From an uncultured delta proteobacterium (GTDB taxonomy: Bacteria; Desulfobacterota; Binatia; Binatales; Binataceae), in NCBI GenBank assembly GCA_963756005.1, contig CAVWMC010000003.1:261158-325157 (forward strand): a stretch of DNA of 64,000 bases, written 5' to 3'. Of this stretch, positions 11,456 through 57,480 are shown one piece after another; the first letter of the stretch is position 1; each line of letters begins with the position of its first letter. The notes below the pieces were generated by a model. That model saw only the letters and a program-made list of their open reading frames with translations. It did no database searches and was not told the origin of the DNA. The position numbers and the translations under genes are program-made.

Positions 11456-11516
11456 AGCAAATGAGTTTATCCCGCCGCTTCGGTTAGACCCAACCGGCCA
11501 AATTCGAACGCGCGAA

Positions 11517-11752
11517 TCCTAACCTCTCCTTGTCCGAGGAGAGGTCGGCGAAAGCCGCGCAGCGGTGTCGCCGGGAGAGGTGCAACGCCGGACACTCTAG
11601 TTACCTCAACTCGTCTAACCGCAATTGCACGATACTGGTCCGGCGCTCGACAGCGGCACAACTACGCGCAGTTGCGACTGCCAGCGTCGTACCTCTCCCG
11701 TCGTTCGCCTTCGGCTCGCGCCGACCTCTCCTCGGACAAGGAGAGGTTAGGA
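11517..11752. repeat. TIR-flanked palindromic element, family A, copy 1 (MITE-like)
   Basis: 34-bp terminal inverted repeats TCCTAACCTCTCCTTGTCCGAGGAGAGGTCGGCG / CGCCGACCTCTCCTCGGACAAGGAGAGGTTAGGA. Internal complementary arms GGGAGAGGTGCAACG / CGTTGCACCTC. About 85-90% identical to the copies at 14365 and 48568. Confidence 0.85.
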
Positions 11753-11769
11753 ATCAAGATACTGCGAGC

Positions 11770-14345: not shown

Positions 14346-14364
14346 AAATTCGGCCTCGCCTGGA

Positions 14365-14558
14365 TCCTAACCTCTCCTTGTCCGAGGAGAGGTCGGCGTA
14401 AGCCGCGTAGCGGTGTCGCCGGGAGAGGTACCACGCCAGGCACTGCACCAATCCCAACTCGTTTAACCCCAATGCGCAGACACTGGTCCGCGTTGCACCT
14501 CGCCCGTCGCTCACCTTCGGCTCGCGCCGACCTCTCCTCGGACAAGGAGACGTTAGGA
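14365..14558. repeat. TIR-flanked palindromic element, family A, copy 2 (shorter; internal ~40-bp deletion)
   Basis: Same 34-bp TIRs as copy 1. Sits between convergent gene ends. Confidence 0.85.
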
Positions 14559-23154: not shown

Positions 23155-23937
23155 TCACTTAACGCCGGGGAAACTTAGGGTGAAGCCGCCGTCTACCATT
23201 ATTGTTTGGGCGGTTAGGTAGCTGCCGGCGGGCATACAAATCAGGCAGGCGACGGCGGCGATCTCATCCAGCGTTGGCAGGCGTTTCAGGGCCGAGCGCT
23301 CAGCGCATCGGCGCTGGAAGTCTTCGTAGTTGTCGCCGAGGTAGTTGGCGTAGAAACGGGCGGAGTCGGTGTCGATGTAGCCGACGTTGAGACCGTTGAC
23401 CGTGATGCCGCGCGGGCCGAGCTCGAAGGCGAAGTCGCGCACCAGGCTCTCGAGCGCGGCCTTGGCGGCGCCGAGCACGCCGTGGCCGGGCAGGTTGCGA
23501 ATCGAGTCGATGCCGGAAATCATCAGCACGCGCCCGCCATCGCGCATCACCTTGTTCGCTTCCTGCACCGCGGCGACGAAGCCGTTGACGCTCAGCGCAA
23601 AGGTACGCGCGAGATTGTGCGGCTTGGTTTCGAGCAGCGGTTTGAACGCGGTCGCGGCGGCGTTGGCGATCAGGATGTCGAGGCCGCCAAGCTCGGCGGC
23701 CGCCCGCGTGACCATCGCACGCACCTGCGCGTCGTCTTCGAGGTCGGCCTTGATGAGAATCGAGCGCGGCGCGATGGCGCGGACGTCGGCGAGCGTTTTC
23801 TCGGCGCTCGCTTCGTCGCGCCGATAGTTCATCGCGACCGTCGCGCCGAGGCGCGCGAGGTTAAGCGCGATGGCGCGGCCTAGTCCGCGCGTGCCGCCGG
23901 TGACGAGCGCGATTTTGTGGTCAAGGTCGTGCGTCAT
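23155..23937 (-). CDS. SDR family oxidoreductase (FabG/FabL-like)
   Basis: VTGGTRGLGRA, NAA, YGAAK motifs. Confidence 0.9.
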   Translation of the reverse strand: MTHDLDHKIALVTGGTRGLGRAIALNLARLGATVAMNYRRDEASAEKTLADVRAIAPRSILIKADLEDDAQVRAMVTRAAAELGGLDILIANAAATAFKPLLETKPHNLARTFALSVNGFVAAVQEANKVMRDGGRVLMISGIDSIRNLPGHGVLGAAKAALESLVRDFAFELGPRGITVNGLNVGYIDTDSARFYANYLGDNYEDFQRRCAERSALKRLPTLDEIAAVACLICMPAGSYLTAQTIMVDGGFTLSFPGVK

Positions 23938-23947
23938 GCTGGCAATC

Positions 23948-24059
23948 CACTTTATTTAATGTGAAACCCGCGGTGGGTTTCACGCTTCCTTCGGCAGGGC
24001 TAAGCCCTGCACCTTAGCGAATAAAGAAATCGCGGAATGTCGAGGACGACATTTCGCTC
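23948..24059. repeat. triple-hairpin intergenic element, family B, copy 1
   Basis: Three stem-loops: GAAACCC-gcggt-GGGTTTC; GCAGGG-ctaa-CCCTGC; AATGTCG-agga-CGACATT. Shared with 26582 and, for the first two hairpins, 56694. Confidence 0.8.
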
Positions 24060-24126
24060 TCAGGTTTGGGGGTAGAGATAGAAGGTTCTCCTGAACCACA
24101 AATCGATTTGGGTTTACCATTCGCTT

Positions 24127-26050
24127 CTATGGATTCAGATTTGGGTAGAGGATTTGGCGGATGTCTTTTGCGAGCGAGGTGCCGTCGGCGCGCAGGGTGC
24201 GCGGGTTGTAGGCTTTCAGCTCGACGCTTACCGTTAGTTCGGCGTCTGAAAGATCCGCCGGCGTTGCGAATGCGACGCGGCCGCTTTCGGATGTGCGCGT
24301 TTCGGCGATGACTGCGTTGCCGCGGCCGTGGAGCGTGACGCGGGCGCCGGCGAGTGGGGGATGCTCGCCGTCCGGCAGCGCGTCGTTGTCGAGCACGGTG
24401 ACGGCGAGGCTGCGGTGATCGCGGGCGCGCGCGATTTCGACGCGCAGATCGCGCAGATAGATCATCGCCTCGGCATACACGGCCTCGATTCCCGCAAGCT
24501 GTGCACCGCGCAGCGGATTTGCTTTGAGTTCGACCCGTTGCGCCGCCATCCCATGGTCCGACGTCACGACGAACAGCGTCGAATCGAGCAGGCCGCGCGC
24601 GCGGAACAAGCTCGAGCACCGCGCCGATTCTTTTGTCGGTGCGATAGAGCGCCTCGCGCGTGCCCTCGTGATGCGGGCCGTAGTCGTGGCCGGCGCCGTC
24701 AGTCAGCACGAACTCGTGCGCGACGAAGGTCGGCGCCTTGCCGTTGTCGCCGCAATGTTCGAGCAAGGCGATCAATTGCGCCATCCCGCGGATATCGACG
24801 ATTTCCTCGCGCGTCATCGCCGGAATGTTGTCGTCGGCCCATCGCGGGCTGACGTCCGACGCCATCTCGGCCGTCAGCGCCTTGAGCCGCGCCTTATCGC
24901 CGACGATACGCCGCTCGAACACCGCGTGCTCGGCGCCGCGTCCCTGCGGTTCGTGAATCGACGCGGTGAGCGTGCCCTCGCCGCCGGCGCGTTTGAAGGC
25001 CTCGTACAGCGTCTCGACGTCCGGGCTCAGGTAGCGCTCGCCATCGTAGATGTTGCCCTGAATCGGCACGGTCTCGCGATGCTCGCGCAGATGGAAGGTC
25101 GGATTCACGACGTCGTGATGCCCGCACCATGCGCCGGTGAGAATCGTCGAGTGGCTGGGCCACGTGATGCTGGGGAAGTTGACGATCGAGCCGTGCGAAA
25201 GCATCGCGCCGCGAGCGACGAGGCCGGCGAGATTCGGAATCGCCGCGGGATTGTTGTCGAGCTGATGGCGCAATTCGGAATGCGTCTGGCCGTCGAGCAG
25301 AATCAGGTACACGCGCCGCGGGCGCTCGGCGTTATCGTCAATAATTTCGTCGAGCGGCCGGCCGTCCTGGCGCTTGAGATAAACTTGGGCGGGCGCGCCG
25401 GACGCGTCGAAGCCGGCGATTTTCGGCATACCGGCGATGCGCGCGATGGTCGGCGCGACGTCAACGTGGCGCGCGTTCAGCTTGAACAGCCCGCGGCGCA
25501 CGCCCGGACCGCTGAATATCAGCGGCGCGCGGCATTGCACGACGTCGAGCGCGCCGTGCTGCCCCGGCTGGATTCCCCACGCGTAGGCCTTGGGGCTGAC
25601 GACGAGGTCGGGCGCGCGCGGACTGTCGAAGAGTTGCGCGATGCGCTCGTAAGCGTAGGGATGGCTCAGCACGTGGGGCTCGAAGTACGCGCGATTGGGA
25701 TCGTCGGTATGATTGCCGCTGCGCGCGGCGGCGTCGAGTTCGTCGGCGATGGTGGAGACGAGGAACGGATCCTGATTGGCGATAGGATTCTCGCCGATTT
25801 GCTCCACCACCTGAAAGGAGAGCGTGCCGCGTGCGTCGGCGAAGCGCTTGAAGCGAATCATCCCGCGGCGCGACCACACTTCGTAGGCGTCGGCGCGCCA
25901 GGTGATCGCGAGATCGACGTTGTCGGCCTCGGACTCGGTGAGCATCGCGAGGATGGCGGCGTCGCCGGAATCGTACTGATGCGGATCGAGCCCATTGCCG
26001 GCGAGCCGTTCGGGTCCGAGTTCGCGCGGCTTATCGGAATCGGGATTCAT
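24127..26050 (-). pseudogene. nucleotide pyrophosphatase/phosphodiesterase (alkaline phosphatase superfamily) gene with an apparent frameshift in a (CG)n run
   Basis: LILLDG, FPSITWPSHSTILTG and HDYGPH motifs in the frame of 24014..26050. The hallmark LFVVTSDHGM and a carboxypeptidase-regulatory-like C-terminus continue in the frame of 24127..24609. The frames switch at ccgcgcgcgcggcc (~24590). Confidence 0.7.
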
Positions 26051-26225
26051 CTTTTTTCAGAATCTCCTTGTCAAAAAACCTTGCTCCATGCGGCATGACG
26101 CGTGCAAGCCAGTTAACGCGCACTACTTAATGTTTCGTTCAGGTTCACCGGCAGGCCGGCGCGTTTGCGTGTGCGCGCGCATTCCCGCAATAGTGAAACC
26201 CCAAACCGGGAAAGGCAATCAGTAT

Positions 26226-26567
26226 ATGGCGCTCAACGAAGAATTCGAATCGAGAATCGGCAAAGGCACCAAGGCTTCAGGCAAGCTGAACTTTCGCGGC
26301 CCGGTGAAAATCGAAGGCGAAGCGGAAGGCGAGATCACCGGAGAGGAAGTCGTAATCGCGGCCGGCGCGGTGGTGAGCGCGCGGATTTCGGCGAGCAAGG
26401 TGACAATTGCGGGCGCGTTCAGCGGCGAAGTCACGGCGCGCGAGCGCGTCGAGCTGATGGCGACGGCGCGGGTGCAATGCACGATCAACACACCCAGCTT
26501 CATACTCAACGAGGGCGCGCAATTCGACGGCGACTGCAAGATGCCGACGAAGAAGCTGGCGGCGTAG
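26226..26567 (+). CDS. bactofilin family cytoskeletal protein
   Basis: DUF583/bactofilin beta-helical repeat pattern (KIEGEAEGEITGEEVVIAAGAVVSARISASKVTIAGAFSGEV). Start at MALNEEF with an RBS. Confidence 0.8.
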   Translation: MALNEEFESRIGKGTKASGKLNFRGPVKIEGEAEGEITGEEVVIAAGAVVSARISASKVTIAGAFSGEVTARERVELMATARVQCTINTPSFILNEGAQFDGDCKMPTKKLAA

Positions 26568-26581
26568 GGAAACACTAAATT

Positions 26582-26690
26582 CACTTTATTTTATGTGAAA
26601 CCCTCCGCGGGTTTCACGCTTCCGCGGCATGGGTGACCCCTGCACCCAGTGATAAGAAAATCGCGAAGTGGCGAGGACGCCATTTCGCTC
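26582..26690. repeat. triple-hairpin intergenic element, family B, copy 2
   Basis: Stems are conserved but loops and some stem pairs differ (AAGTGGCG..CGCCATTT vs AATGTCG..CGACATT). Followed by further hairpins at 26708..26760 and a GGGTTAGG palindrome at 26805..26838. Confidence 0.8.
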
Positions 26691-26833
26691 AAAGGTTCTT
26701 TTCCTGTGTCATTCAGAGCGCAGCGAAGAATCCCGGTGCCGATTCTTTCTCCGCGTGACTGTTCCCGTTCCCGCTCAGGAAGTGATCACTCCAAATGACC
26801 GGTTCCCCTTCCCGCGCGGGAAGGGGTTAGGGG

Positions 26834-30889: not shown

Positions 30890-31088
30890 GCTGCGCGATT
30901 TCAGAGACCGGAACCGGCTTCGCGTGCGCGAAGCTGTCCGAGATCCTTCCTGCCGCTCGCGATGCTCGCTCTGTCAGGATGACACACGCGCTCGCGCTTC
31001 TGCTTCGTCAGGATGACACACAGACGCTCGCGCTTCTGGTTCGTCAGGGTGACACGCATACGCTCGCGCTGCTGCTTGGTCAGGATTA
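30890..31088. repeat. intergenic repeat family C, copy 2, with 3.5 tandem ~37-bp units
   Basis: 57-bp core shared with 3961..4119, followed by tandem CGTCAGGATGACACAC(G)CGCTCGCGCTTCTGCTT units. Confidence 0.8.
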
Positions 31089-31107
31089 GAGAGAGGGCGC
31101 CGGAACT

Positions 31108-48567: not shown

Positions 48568-48806
48568 TCCTAACCTCCCTTGTCCGAGGGGAGGTCGGCG
48601 TAAGCCGCTTGAAAAGCGGTGTTGCCGGGAGAGGTGCAACGCCTGACACCGCACCGACCCCGACTCGTTTAATCGCAATTGAGAGAAACTATTCCGCCGC
48701 CCGACGGCAGCACAACTACGCGCAGTTGTAGCGGCGCGCGTTGCACCTCGCCCGTCGCGCCCCTTCGGCGCGCGCCGACCTCTCCTCGGACAAGGAGAGG
48801 TTAGGA
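48568..48806. repeat. TIR-flanked palindromic element, family A, copy 3
   Basis: Same TIRs with minor variants (CTCCC / GGGGAG). Sits between convergent gene ends. Confidence 0.85.
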
Positions 48807-48839
48807 ATCTCGCTGCGACCAAGAACTATCGCGACGAAC

Positions 48840-55637: not shown

Positions 55638-56684
55638 ATGACACAGGAATCTTCAGGCACCACGCTATCGAACCGGCAGCATTCGCTGGTGCTCGCGGCG
55701 GTGCAGGAGTTTATCGCGACCGCCGAGCCGGTCGGATCGGCGCAGATCGTCGCGCGGCATCAGCTGGGCGTACGCGGCGCGATGGTGCGCAACATGATGG
55801 CCGAGCTCGAGGACGGCGGTTACCTGCGCCAGCCCCACACCTCTGCAGGGCGGGTCCCTACTGAAAAAGCGTTCCGCTACTACGTCGATCATCTGGCGGC
55901 GGCGACGCGAATCGGCTTCGAGGATCGCGCGCAAATCGAGCTCCATTACTCGAGCGCCGTGCGCAATCTCGGCGAAGTCCTGCGCGACACGCCACGCCTG
56001 CTGTCGATTTTGACGGGACAGGCGGCGCTGGTGATGGCGCCGCGGCTGGAGGCCTCGATCATCGAGCGCGTCAACTTCGTGCGGCTGCGCGACAACCAGG
56101 TGCTGGCGGTTTTCGTGGCGTCGAAGGGCGCGATGCAGAATCGAATCGTCGATACCGATCGCGACCATTCGCAGGACGAGCTCGATCGGATGGCGCGCTA
56201 TCTCAACCAGTCGCTCGAAGGACGCACGCTCGACGAAGCGCGGCGGTGGATCGAAACGCAGCTTCGTGAAGAGCGCGCAAGCTACGATCGCTTCATGCAC
56301 GACGCGCTCGCGCTCGGCGAGGCGCTGGCCGATTACATCGGGCGCCCCGAGATGTACGTCGAGGGCAGCCTGCAGGCGCTCGAACAGCCGGAGTTTTCCG
56401 ATCGCGGCAAGATGCGCGAGCTGTTGCGCGCGCTCGACGACAAAACCGCGCTGCTCGAATTGCTCGAGCGCAGCCTGACCAACGCCGGCCTGACCGTGTC
56501 GATCGGGTCCGAGAACTACGACCCGCGGCTGGCGTCGTTGAGCGTGGTCGCGGCTTCGTACGCGAGCGGTTCGAGCGCGCTCGGCAGTCTCGCGATCGTC
56601 GGGCCGGTGCGGATGGACTACGACCGGGTCATCCCGCTGGTCGAGTACACGGCGCGGGCGCTGTCGCGGCTGATGGAATATTGA
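55638..56684 (+). CDS. hrcA: heat-inducible transcription repressor HrcA
   Basis: Winged-helix N-terminus (AEPVGSAQIV) and overall HrcA similarity. Followed by grpE-dnaK-dnaJ. Confidence 0.9.
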   Translation: MTQESSGTTLSNRQHSLVLAAVQEFIATAEPVGSAQIVARHQLGVRGAMVRNMMAELEDGGYLRQPHTSAGRVPTEKAFRYYVDHLAAATRIGFEDRAQIELHYSSAVRNLGEVLRDTPRLLSILTGQAALVMAPRLEASIIERVNFVRLRDNQVLAVFVASKGAMQNRIVDTDRDHSQDELDRMARYLNQSLEGRTLDEARRWIETQLREERASYDRFMHDALALGEALADYIGRPEMYVEGSLQALEQPEFSDRGKMRELLRALDDKTALLELLERSLTNAGLTVSIGSENYDPRLASLSVVAASYASGSSALGSLAIVGPVRMDYDRVIPLVEYTARALSRLMEY

Positions 56685-56693
56685 AGAATTGAA

Positions 56694-56756
56694 ATGAAAC
56701 CCACGGTGGGTTTCAAACTTCCTTCGGCAGGGGTGACCCCTGCACCCGGTACTTCT
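56694..56756. repeat. family B element, copy 3 (first two hairpins only)
   Basis: GAAACCC-acggt-GGGTTTC and GCAGGGG-tga-CCCCTGC. Confidence 0.75.
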
Positions 56757-56856
56757 GCTCCCTAAAGTCTGCGAATAATTCAACGATTTCGGGCTTGCGG
56801 GCAGTGGCGCGGGTGGAAATCGTGCTTACGTTTAGCGTTGGTTCGGTCTGGCAAAC

Positions 56857-57480
56857 ATGAACAAACGACACAAGCATCCTCAGGACGGAAATCCCGGTAT
56901 GGATGGTGAGTTCGATCAGACGGACGCCGCGCCGCAGGCGGAACATGCCGATGCGGAAGCGTTGCGCGCGCAGATCGCCGAAAAAGACAAGGAAATCGCC
57001 GAGCTGAAGGACAAGTATCTGCGCACGCTCGCCGACTCCGAGAATGCGCGCAAGCGAATCCGCCAGCAGAGCGAGGAATCCGTGCGTATCCAGCGCGAGA
57101 GTATCCTGCGCGACCTGCTGCCGATTATCGACAACCTCGAACGCGCGCTTGCAGCCGCTCGCAACGGCACCGACGCCAAGACGATCGTCGATGGCGTCGA
57201 GATGACGGTGCGGGCGCTGATCGATTTCCTGCGCGCGCAGGGCGTGACGCCGTTGCAGGCGGTCGGACAGACATTCGATCCCAATCGGCATGAGGCGGTC
57301 GATCACGTGGCGTCTGCAGCGCACGCGCCGAACACGGTCGTCGATGAGTTCCATCGGGGGTATCTGATTGGCGAGCGGGTCCTGCGGCCGGCGCGAGTGT
57401 CGGTTGCCAAGGGAAATGGGACCGATTCGGGAAAGCGAAACGGAGGCGAAAGCGACGCCTCCGACGTTGAAAATAACTGA
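56857..57480 (+). CDS. grpE: nucleotide exchange factor GrpE
   Basis: GrpE coiled coil and C-terminal beta domain. Confidence 0.95.
   Translation: MNKRHKHPQDGNPGMDGEFDQTDAAPQAEHADAEALRAQIAEKDKEIAELKDKYLRTLADSENARKRIRQQSEESVRIQRESILRDLLPIIDNLERALAAARNGTDAKTIVDGVEMTVRALIDFLRAQGVTPLQAVGQTFDPNRHEAVDHVASAAHAPNTVVDEFHRGYLIGERVLRPARVSVAKGNGTDSGKRNGGESDASDVENN

Follow-up and report, generated by a model that had tools for sequence, protein, structure and literature searches.

BOX elements of Streptococcus pneumoniae are intergenic modular repeats in which boxA, boxB and boxC occur in variable combinations and for which stable RNA structures are predicted, and the mycobacterial interspersed repetitive units (MIRUs) of Mycobacterium tuberculosis are tandem direct repeats with small open reading frames (ORFs) overlapping the flanking stop and start codons. 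Correia elements of Neisseria and the ERIC/IRU elements, which are miniature inverted-repeat transposable elements (MITEs), are ∼100–150 nt non-autonomous dispersed repeats that are transcribed with their neighbours. In the ends of IS200/IS605 elements, in palindrome-associated transposable elements (PATEs) and in the repetitive extragenic palindromes (REPs) that serve as substrates of REP-associated tyrosine transposases (RAYTs), a guide sequence at the foot of a hairpin pairs with the cleavage site. REPs are reportedly homogenised by gene conversion (Higgins et al. 1988, by its title in the reference list of PMC12306157). Here we describe Family B, a hairpin repeat found in three copies in a 64,000-nt stretch of DNA (the window) from an uncultured delta proteobacterium of the Binataceae (assembly GCA_963756005.1, contig CAVWMC010000003.1, positions 261,158 to 325,157 of the forward strand). 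Family B is an undescribed, lineage-specific, high-copy, modular extragenic repeat of Binatus/Binataceae genomes. The Binatota are an uncultured, globally distributed phylum of soil and peat for which, to our knowledge, no non-coding elements have been described. Two properties set the family beyond ordinary REP-like repeats, namely a clean covariation between the loop of its first hairpin and a downstream linker and placement directly after stop codons. For a repeat family the covariation is unusually clean, and it makes a structural prediction open to direct test; placement after stops, whichever stop codon is used, raises the concrete question of how such repeats choose their sites.

Family B resembles the REP/BIME (bacterial interspersed mosaic element) or BOX class, and is not a strict REP, a typical MITE, an intrinsic terminator or an Rfam family. 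Like REPs and BIMEs, it is high-copy, extragenic and built of imperfect palindromes combined with other motifs in mosaics, the BIME-type mosaic consisting here of two 5' arm types, alternative 3' modules a and b, and copies that often adjoin two other repeat families. By analogy, transcription in 3' untranslated regions (UTRs) and intercistronic regions would be a further likeness, and E. coli REPs, too, are in many cases no further than about 20 nt from a stop codon (PMC12306157). The Family B unit is, however, asymmetric and longer (60–130 nt with three unlike hairpins, compared with a REP palindrome of 20–40 nt), and its putative loop-linker pseudoknot is without REP counterpart. A sequence-only reading of this DNA had favoured a REP-like, protein-bound or RNA-stabilising element; the REP label fails on the defining features of REPs. 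No GTAG-like, GT(A/G)G-type 5' tetranucleotide is present, the first hairpin (H1) being preceded by (A/T)AT and then opening with GTGAAACCC, and inverted doublets at fixed spacing (REPINs) are absent, copies being single and inverted pairs occurring only at convergent gene ends with variable spacing.

With BOX, the element shares modular sub-units, a predicted stable RNA fold and an intergenic position near genes, although sequence and lineage are unrelated, the Family B core is constant with only the 3' module alternating, and there is no tandem middle module. As with MIRUs, copies occur intercistronically within operons, in the direction of the genes on either side and right against the stop codon of the upstream one, but the unit is a single non-coding hairpin cluster. 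Size range, dispersal and presence/absence polymorphism recall MITEs, whereas three filled-versus-empty comparisons showed no target-site duplications, terminal inverted repeats are lacking and the two ends are unrelated, the 5' arm CACTTTATTTAATG not being complementary to the 3' ends TCTCAGGTTC or TGTTAGAAC. Strand-specific single-stranded hairpins with nearby short sequences that pair with the structure are shared with IS200/IS605 ends, PATEs and REP-RAYT substrates. In Family B, however, it is the hairpin loop that pairs, with a linker 7–10 nt downstream, strict replication-strand orientation is absent, and a tblastn search of 1.57 Mb gave no match to an IS200 TnpA (Y1) query, which is only a weak negative. 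Finally, GC-rich hairpins lying shortly past stops, many of them in sense orientation, resemble Rho-independent terminators, from which Family B differs in having no adjacent U-tract and in copies that also occur inside operons and antisense.

A modular, high-copy repeat family

The pattern GAAACCC-N5-GGGTTTC is matched three times in the window, always on the + strand, compared with 0.16 matches expected by chance, and a repeat search of the window places the three sites in one group. Copies 1 and 2 can be aligned over ∼125 nt, the part in common with copy 3 being the central 60–70 nt only. A covariance model, R1, was built from 141 family members including the three window copies and detects exactly three full copies in the window, with E-values of 4e-34 (copy 1), 8e-32 (copy 2) and 4e-29 (copy 3) that arise partly by construction, as these copies are in the training alignment. 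The informative part of the scan is that the 64 kb contains no fourth copy, leftover matches being palindromic stems read on the opposite strand. Sense-strand folds were much more stable than those of shuffled sequences for copy 1 (z −5.2) and copy 2 (z −4.1) and modestly so for copy 3 (z −2.5). The original observation of three copies sharing stems is thereby borne out, and the common sequence extends beyond the limits first assigned to it, to CACTTTATTTwATG on the 5' side and TCTCAGGTT on the 3' side. The features of the copies are as follows, A2 being an alignment of 141 copies, most of them selected with H1 fixed, and A3 an alignment of 34 copies of module a.

23943..24067, + strand: copy 1, full form (core plus 3' module a); R1 match 23938-24030, module a nhmmer match 24026-24068
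23943..23960, + strand: copy 1 AT-rich 5' arm CAATCCACTTTATTTAAT; conserved CACTTTATTKAATG block in A2
23961..23983, + strand: copy 1 H1, GTGAAACCC-gcggt-GGGTTTCAC, 9 bp with a 5-nt loop; A2 pair counts
23984..23993, + strand: copy 1 GCTTCC and linker TTCG; loop/linker pair counts and haplotype tables
23994..24010, + strand: copy 1 second hairpin (H2), GCAGGGC-taa-GCCCTGC, 7 bp with a 3-nt loop; sequence, and top-pair counts across copies
24011..24031, + strand: copy 1 tail ACCTTAG and A-rich spacer; sequence and A2
24032..24057, + strand: copy 1 third hairpin (H3, module a), GCGGAATGTCG-agga-CGACATTTCGC, 11 bp with one G.T; A3 pair counts
24058..24067, + strand: copy 1 module a trailer TCTCAGGTTT; conserved TCTCAGGTTC in A3
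26578..26704, + strand: copy 2, full form, sense, 11 nt past the bactofilin stop; R1 match 26572-26663, module a match 26657-26699
26595-26617, + strand: copy 2 H1
26618-26627, + strand: copy 2 CTTCC and linker GCGG
26627-26643, + strand: copy 2 H2
26663-26688, + strand: copy 2 H3
26689-26704, + strand: copy 2 trailer
56685..56753, + strand: copy 3, core only, sense, between hrcA and grpE; R1 match 56672-56763
56695-56715, + strand: copy 3 H1
56716-56726, + strand: copy 3 CTTCC and linker
56727-56743, + strand: copy 3 H2
56744-56753, + strand: copy 3 tail

All three hairpins of the sequence-only reading exist but their dimensions required correction. Copies 1 and 2 have a 9-bp H1 stem, GTGAAACCC/GGGTTTCAC, which is shortened to 8 bp in copy 3. 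H2 has 7 bp and a 3-nt loop; copies 2 and 3 share a G-C top pair where copy 1 has C-G, and one T.C mismatch is present in copy 2. The 7-bp H3 originally proposed is only the upper part of an 11-bp stem, GCG(G/A)A(A/G)TG(T/G)CG-AGGA-CG(A/C)CATTTCGC, at 24032-24057 and 26663-26688; the T-A versus G-C exchange noted in it is nevertheless real and recurs across 34 copies elsewhere.

A whole unit spans 60–130 nt, of which the core, consisting of 5' arm, H1, CTTCC, linker, H2 and tail, occupies 60–75 nt. The 5' arm is of two types, either GGGAAGGGKAAATCACTTTATTKAATG directly following the stop codon or a purine run followed by GGAACTTAATTGAATG. H1 is succeeded by a nearly invariant R-CTTCC, a linker of 4–5 nt (TTCGG, TTGGG, CTGGG or GCGG), H2, a tail that reads CACCC(A/G)GT or CACCTTAGT, and an A/G-rich spacer. 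The 3' end, whose modularity the sequence-only reading had missed, is found in three states, module a (H3 then TCTCAGGTTC), module b (GATGCGGGAC-TTC-GTCCCTGTTAGAAC) or neither, and the 34 matches to module a and 47 to module b occur essentially only joined to a core. An enlarged-H2 subfamily (loci L005, L019, L023 and L087) carries an identical 26-nt insertion, CCTCCTTCGGCTTCGCTCAGGACAGGCT, in H2 at independent loci. H2 plus tail is also found without H1, behind a different 5' partner, GCGCGGYGGGCGG-CAGGGGTGACCCCTGCACCCAGT (L090 169-199, L114 5318-5347, L106 1880-1910 and L050 861-891), indicating that H2 is common to more than one repeat family. A small ORF within the element was considered and rejected, as some copies have ACG, AAG or TAG in place of the ATG or GTG at the foot of H1 and subfamilies are separated by 1-nt indels in linker or loop, because of which we regard the element as non-coding.

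The family was sampled in two ways. A genome scan with GAAACCC-N5-GGGTTTCANNCTTCC, using one genome per species, matched at least 118 stretches in 36 assemblies; among the matches listed, these are labelled Candidatus Binatus, Binataceae or 'delta proteobacterium' soil and peat bins, with two exceptions (L045 and L059) from one assembly labelled Candidatus Acidiferrales. In the 0.96 Mb formed by the listed loci of the 36 assemblies and the window, nhmmer detects 171 core copies, only one of which lies inside a called gene. A second scan took in soil and peat metagenome contigs and used CTTCC and H2 as anchors, which made it blind to H1; it matched at least 120 stretches, and those listed provide an independent sample of 146 core copies in 0.61 Mb. 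Several flanks are 85–94% identical to the window, which therefore derives from a Binatus-like genome, a lineage that the sequence-only reading had not recognised. By extrapolation three copies per 64 kb correspond to roughly 200 per 4–5 Mb genome. A family limited to the three copies, without compensation in a larger set, would have spoken against the sequence-only reading; what is found is hundreds of copies with compensated stems. Rfam gave no match to the whole window at gathering score and only chance-level matches (E 2.5–8.6) to the three element regions at permissive E-values, blastn against plasmid and phage collections returned nothing, and a literature search for Binatota repeats and for the element's sequence strings found no description. 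At ∼1 repeat per 20 kb the family alters how Binatota genomes should be annotated, since mechanically called ORFs run into it and it yields false 'conserved intergenic RNAs'.

Compensated stems and a loop-linker pairing

Pairing is retained in the stems through compensatory change. In A2, 92.7% of cells are paired compared with 28–53% when partner columns are slid by 1–3 positions, and the covariation score was reached by no shuffle. H1 is paired in 98.1% of A2 cells, with three pairs changed on both sides (G-C 117, A-U 8, U-A 4; U-A 130, C-G 5; A-U 133, G-C 7), and the top pair of H2 is G-C in 123 copies, C-G in 13 and U-A in 3. Because most A2 sequences were selected with H1 fixed, the H1 count was repeated on the H1-blind metagenome sample, in which 117/117 unique copies retain an H1 hairpin with at least 7 of 9 pairs, including the new paired variants ATG/CAT, TTG/CAA and GCG/CGC and a symmetric one-pair shortening. 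In the H3 of module a, 94.7% of A3 cells are paired and four pairs are changed on both sides, for example A-U 21 to G-C 12 and G-C 23 to U-A 7. The proposal that both strands of a stem change together, made originally from H3, is confirmed by these data for H1, H2 and H3. The stems alone do not point to RNA, and they would form in either orientation.

The H1 loops had been taken to be freely variable. They are not, as they co-vary with the linker that follows CTTCC: loop positions 2–4 are complementary to linker positions 4–2 in a single register. In A2 the middle pair (columns 40-62) is G-C in 63 copies and C-G in 55, the pair at 41-61 is GU in 104, AU in 10 and GC in 4, and that at 39-63 is CG in 127 and UG in 8. 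At least 8 haplotypes preserve the complementarity, and each data set has about 5 copies that do not conform; the metagenome sample repeats the haplotype table, about 5/117 copies being discordant. The principal combinations are listed here.

Loop GCGGT or ACGGT with linker TTCGG: 51 copies, 3 bp, one of them G.U
Loop GCCGT or ACCGT with linker TTGGG or CTGGG: 40 copies, 3 bp, one of them G.U
Loop TCCGC or TTCGC with linker GCGG: 11 copies, 4 pairs (TCCGC, 4 Watson-Crick; TTCGC, one U.G)
Loop GCGAT with linker TTCGG: 6 copies, A-U in place of G.U
Loop ACCAT with linker TTGGG: 3 copies, A-U in place of G.U

In copy 1, H1 loop bases 23971-23973 are complementary to linker bases 23991-23993, and in copy 2 loop TCCGC and linker GCGG allow 4 Watson-Crick pairs. 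As loop and linker change in a complementary and not an identical manner, they do not constitute a direct repeat. The covariation likely reflects a pseudoknot, of the H type by its topology and forming on the + strand only, since a G.U (G.T) pair is part of its commonest form. Its short second helix would lie directly against H2, on which it could stack, with RCUUCC as the connecting loop; a possible alternative is a 7-bp helix drawing on GGG from H1 and TCC from CTTCC. Where a copy is antisense, as copy 1 is, the stems would still form and the pseudoknot alone would be lost.

Further associations between positions were detected in A2. At columns 30/48/54, an H1 pair changes from A-U to G-C together with the unpaired CTTCC changing to CCTCC (132 copies versus 7); the CCTCCTT variant matches the anti-Shine-Dalgarno sequence of 16S rRNA. 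At columns 75/87, G or A in the H2 loop goes together with C or TT, respectively, in the tail (113/116 and 22/24). A loop-tail pairing (G75/C87 versus A75/T87) was rejected for the latter, the strands being joined by only 2–3 nt, and the almost perfect association may be simple linkage. Two other candidate interactions were also discarded. For copy 1 the prediction includes a helix in which the 5' arm and the A-rich spacer close off the fold (CTTTATT/AATAAAG), but this receives no support from other copies, and pairing of the purine-rich 5' arm with CTTCC (−7.3 kcal/mol, compared with −5.2 kcal/mol in control post-stop windows) showed no covariation, with a reversed-target control that was uninformative.

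Placement, turnover and competing explanations

Genes were called with a purpose-made codon-usage ORF caller. A co-oriented upstream stop codon lies within 25 nt of the copy start in 88/162 copies (about 54%) and, in a relaxed-pattern set of 152 copies, 0–40 nt before H1 in 80 of the 89 that have a co-oriented upstream gene. TGA, TAG and TAA stand beside the element in the same proportions as at other genes (p = 0.94), indicating that the stop codons are the genes' own and ruling out a stop supplied by the element. Consistent with this, in 3/3 comparisons with orthologous sites that lack it the element begins right after a pre-existing stop. Forty copies lie between convergent genes, where each gene of a pair has its own sense copy, and 26 between divergent ones. 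In 63% of cases the element's + strand is on the G-rich strand, a weak bias that was rejected as a replication-strand preference because it is confounded with gene orientation; both orientations are found within single loci, which argues against a strict replication-strand rule.

Canonical hairpin-plus-T-tract terminators are rare around these genes. They follow 25/570 control genes without the element in Binatus loci L001–L118 and occur within 255 nt of only 3/88 after-stop copies, and terminator scans of the window called no sense-strand terminator at any of the three copies. The lineage seems to make little use of classical intrinsic terminators. The earlier statement that no U-tract follows the copies holds for copies 1 and 3, whereas copy 2 has TTCTTTT, although 7 nt past the stem. 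Its conclusion that these are unlikely to be classical intrinsic terminators stands, there being no hairpin-adjacent U-tract and many copies being antisense to their neighbours.

Copies at orthologous sites do not resemble one another as their surroundings do. In 30 orthologous pairs with the element in both species, cores are 78% alike compared with 75% for random pairs, while flanks average 88%. Between orthologous copies, differences are frequent in loop-linker haplotype, stem variant of H1, type of arm and 3' module, yet each copy retains its own complementarity. At the site of copy 2, which carries module a, L065 carries module b, and at that of copy 3, which lacks a module, L039 carries module a. 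Presence also varies between species, about 20/68 syntenic comparisons lacking the element at the matching site. Sites without it keep fragments, AATCCGCGGC in L079 and TGCGGGAC in L025, and for this reason look like deletions. We infer that the family is kept uniform by gene conversion or re-insertion among copies.

The explanation that we put first, tentatively and in the knowledge that it may well be wrong, is that Family B is a REP/BIME-like modular repeat acting as a block of stable RNA structure in 3' UTRs and intercistronic regions, where it protects and defines 3' ends. The element would be transcribed within these regions and its hairpins would give a compact, very stable RNA block, to which, in sense orientation, an H-type pseudoknot may add stability by stacking on H2. 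Such a block would halt 3'-to-5' exonucleolytic decay, so that the 3' ends of upstream messages would be defined and stabilised in a lineage with very few canonical hairpin-plus-U terminators. Because classical terminators are rare, the repeat may be the main 3'-end structure of Binatota messages, and a whole lineage would then have swapped the textbook terminator hairpin for a repeat-borne structure. By analogy with the dnaK operon of Bacillus subtilis, which is processed, the site of copy 3, after hrcA and before grpE, would suit an operon whose parts differ in stability. The nearest documented parallel for the position comes from E. coli, where REPs stabilise upstream mRNA and a large proportion of them follow a stop codon by 1–20 nt (PMC12306157). 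Several observations weigh against this explanation. Among copies between co-directional genes, the ratio of sense to antisense is 46 to 31 (∼40% antisense). Conservation is equally good away from stop codons and after them (p = 0.79), which suggests recent spread or gene conversion and not selection on each mRNA. Wobble versus A.C counts in the stems (3:6 and 5:7 in H1, 2:5 in H2, about 6:1 in H3) reveal no strand asymmetry. There is no mechanistic explanation for copies starting exactly after stop codons. In addition, the pseudoknot has only 3–4 bp and its 6–7 nt connector must cross the 9-bp H1, a geometry that is plausible but unproven.

The main rival, appreciably less probable in our estimation, is a mobile element of the REPIN, PATE or MITE type, non-autonomous and purely selfish, its structures recognised in a single-stranded DNA or RNA intermediate by an enzyme encoded elsewhere and its position after stops representing target choice or tolerated insertion sites, with no host function. 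High copy number, variable presence between species and the differing haplotypes, arm types and 3' modules at orthologous sites whose flanks are 85–94% identical all agree with it. So does conservation that is equal in all contexts and orientations, which together with the turnover fits a selfish element as well as or better than an RNA block; the stems show no RNA-type G.U excess, complementarity kept within each subfamily is expected if propagation needs structure, and the + strand is weakly commoner on the G-rich strand (63%). Other findings speak against it. Terminal inverted repeats are absent, three filled-versus-empty comparisons revealed no target-site duplications, the 'empty' sites retaining fragments like deletions, and no transposase-like or multi-copy protein is encoded in the 0.96 Mb of flanks, where protein clustering recovered housekeeping paralogues only. 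The Y1 search gave a weak negative, the occurrence of both orientations within single loci does not follow a strict IS200/IS605-type replication-strand rule, and the adjacent stops in genomic proportions reveal no evident nucleotide target motif. A bolder reading is unlikely but would be far-reaching if true. The core would be a defined three-dimensional RNA fold, made up of H1, a loop-linker pseudoknot stacked on H2 and possibly a base triple involving the invariant CUUCC, placed directly after the stops of hundreds of genes as a dedicated 3'-end device that is exonuclease-resistant or controls termination or decay in place of canonical terminators; or else the same fold in single-stranded DNA would be the substrate of a mobilisation system targeting ORF ends.

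The remaining explanations are less probable still. A lineage-specific non-canonical terminator or attenuator, whose hairpins stop RNA polymerase without a U-tract and possibly with NusA or NusG, appears improbable: most copies are sense and directly after stops, canonical terminators are rare in these genomes and a subset of copies has a T-rich run 7–10 nt past the 3' module, but no U-tract adjoins any stem and ∼40% of copies between co-directional genes are antisense. Moreover, copy 3 is within the hrcA-grpE-dnaK operon, where full termination would do harm, and at L003 a textbook bidirectional terminator is downstream of two convergent copies, placing the element upstream of the real terminator. 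We give slightly less credence to a DNA-level protein-binding site of the nucleoid-associated, gyrase/IHF-like or ParB-like kind, as for E. coli BIMEs, even though the stems lack strand asymmetry and copies are equally conserved in either orientation. The H1 arms (window 23961-23983), GTGAAAC and GTTTCAC, equal the two half-sites of the parS consensus, yet they are in swapped order and 9 bp apart; coexisting stem variants (GTG/CAC, GCG/CGC, ATG/CAT and GGAAC/GTTCC) preserve pairing and not a fixed half-site, and duplex DNA offers no explanation for an asymmetric loop-linker complementarity with a predominant G.T pair. To judge by the reference list of PMC12306157, BIMEs bind IHF, gyrase and Pol I. 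Least probable, and in our view very much so, are independent small-RNA genes or a cis-regulatory riboswitch-like or ribozyme-like RNA. A compact fold with covarying tertiary-type pairing and an A/G-rich, ARN-like spacer before the last hairpin would suit them, whereas hundreds of copies beside unrelated genes, the lack of a conserved promoter, the lack of an Rfam match even at E ≤ 5–10, and 3' modules that are interchangeable or absent would not. As a separate observation, a true parS-like palindrome, GTTTCACGTGAAAC, occurs in L114 ∼110 nt 3' of its copy and is probably a coincidence.

Neighbouring genes and accompanying repeats

The genes adjoining the three copies in the window are the following.

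23155..23937, − strand: short-chain dehydrogenase gene; Pfam adh_short_C2, E 3e-55
24127..26050, − strand (mechanical ORF 24014-26050): alkaline-phosphatase/phosphodiesterase-family gene, stop at 24127-24129; Pfam Phosphodiest
25995..26567, + strand: bactofilin gene, upstream of copy 2; Pfam Bactofilin, E 1e-24
55638..56684, + strand: hrcA, upstream of copy 3; Pfam HrcA, E 2e-59
56857..57480, + strand: grpE, downstream of copy 3; Pfam GrpE, E 8e-50

All three copies had been said to sit immediately after stop codons, which is correct for copies 2 and 3, their H1 beginning 27 nt past the bactofilin TAG (26565-26567) and 10 nt past the hrcA TGA (56682-56684), respectively. It is not the case for copy 1, which has a minus-strand gene on either side and runs antisense to each of them; ∼6 nt separate its 5' end from the dehydrogenase ATG (23937), and its 3' end is ∼60 nt short of the end of the phosphatase-family gene. 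The latter gene is in two reading frames, with a switch in the phase of third-position GC content (GC3) near 24600 and a C-terminal ORF at 24127-24609 (...VVTSDHGM...). These features indicate that the gene ends at 24127 and that the run-on to 24014 through H3 is an artefact; its true stop, at 24127-24129, is thus ∼60 nt past the 3' end of copy 1 and the copy does not follow it, contrary to what had been supposed. The frame change near 24600 represents an assembly frameshift or a pseudogene, and the mechanical 678-aa ORF falsely enters the repeat.

Copy 2, read on the minus strand across H1 and the 5' arm (26588-26617), has a likeness to a sigma-70 promoter (GTGAAA, 18 nt, TAAAAT); the −10 hexamers of other copies are weaker. 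As a general property of the element an outward minus-strand promoter (GTGAAA-18-TAAAAT) was rejected, copy 2 alone passing the scan, although antisense copies may have one, for instance copy 1, which is immediately upstream of the dehydrogenase gene.

Copies of Family B are often followed by two other repeat families, both of which are present after copy 2, at ∼26700 and ∼26797. In the window these repeats, TGTGTCATTCAGAGCGCAGCGAAGAATCCCGG and CCGGTTCCCCTTCCCGCGCGGGAAGGGGTTAGGGGTTAGG, occupy 26700-26735 and 26797-26832, and they recur right after Family B copies in many Binatus loci, the intergenic regions being stacks of repeat modules. At 30982-31089 a 36-nt unit, ACACACGCGCTCGCGCTTCTGCTTCGTCAGGATGAC, is present three times in tandem with 81–100% identity and may be a coding repeat. 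A second repeat family in the window, at 11509-11755, 14357-14558 and 48578-48809, consists of units of 130–195 nt with 82–97% identity and an inverted motif, CCTTGTCCGAGGAGAGGTCGGCG...CGCCGACCTCTCCTCGGACAAGG, that is also found beside Family B copies in other Binatus loci (for example L099 and L113). One window copy of this second family holds the site at which L087 and L076 have Family B.

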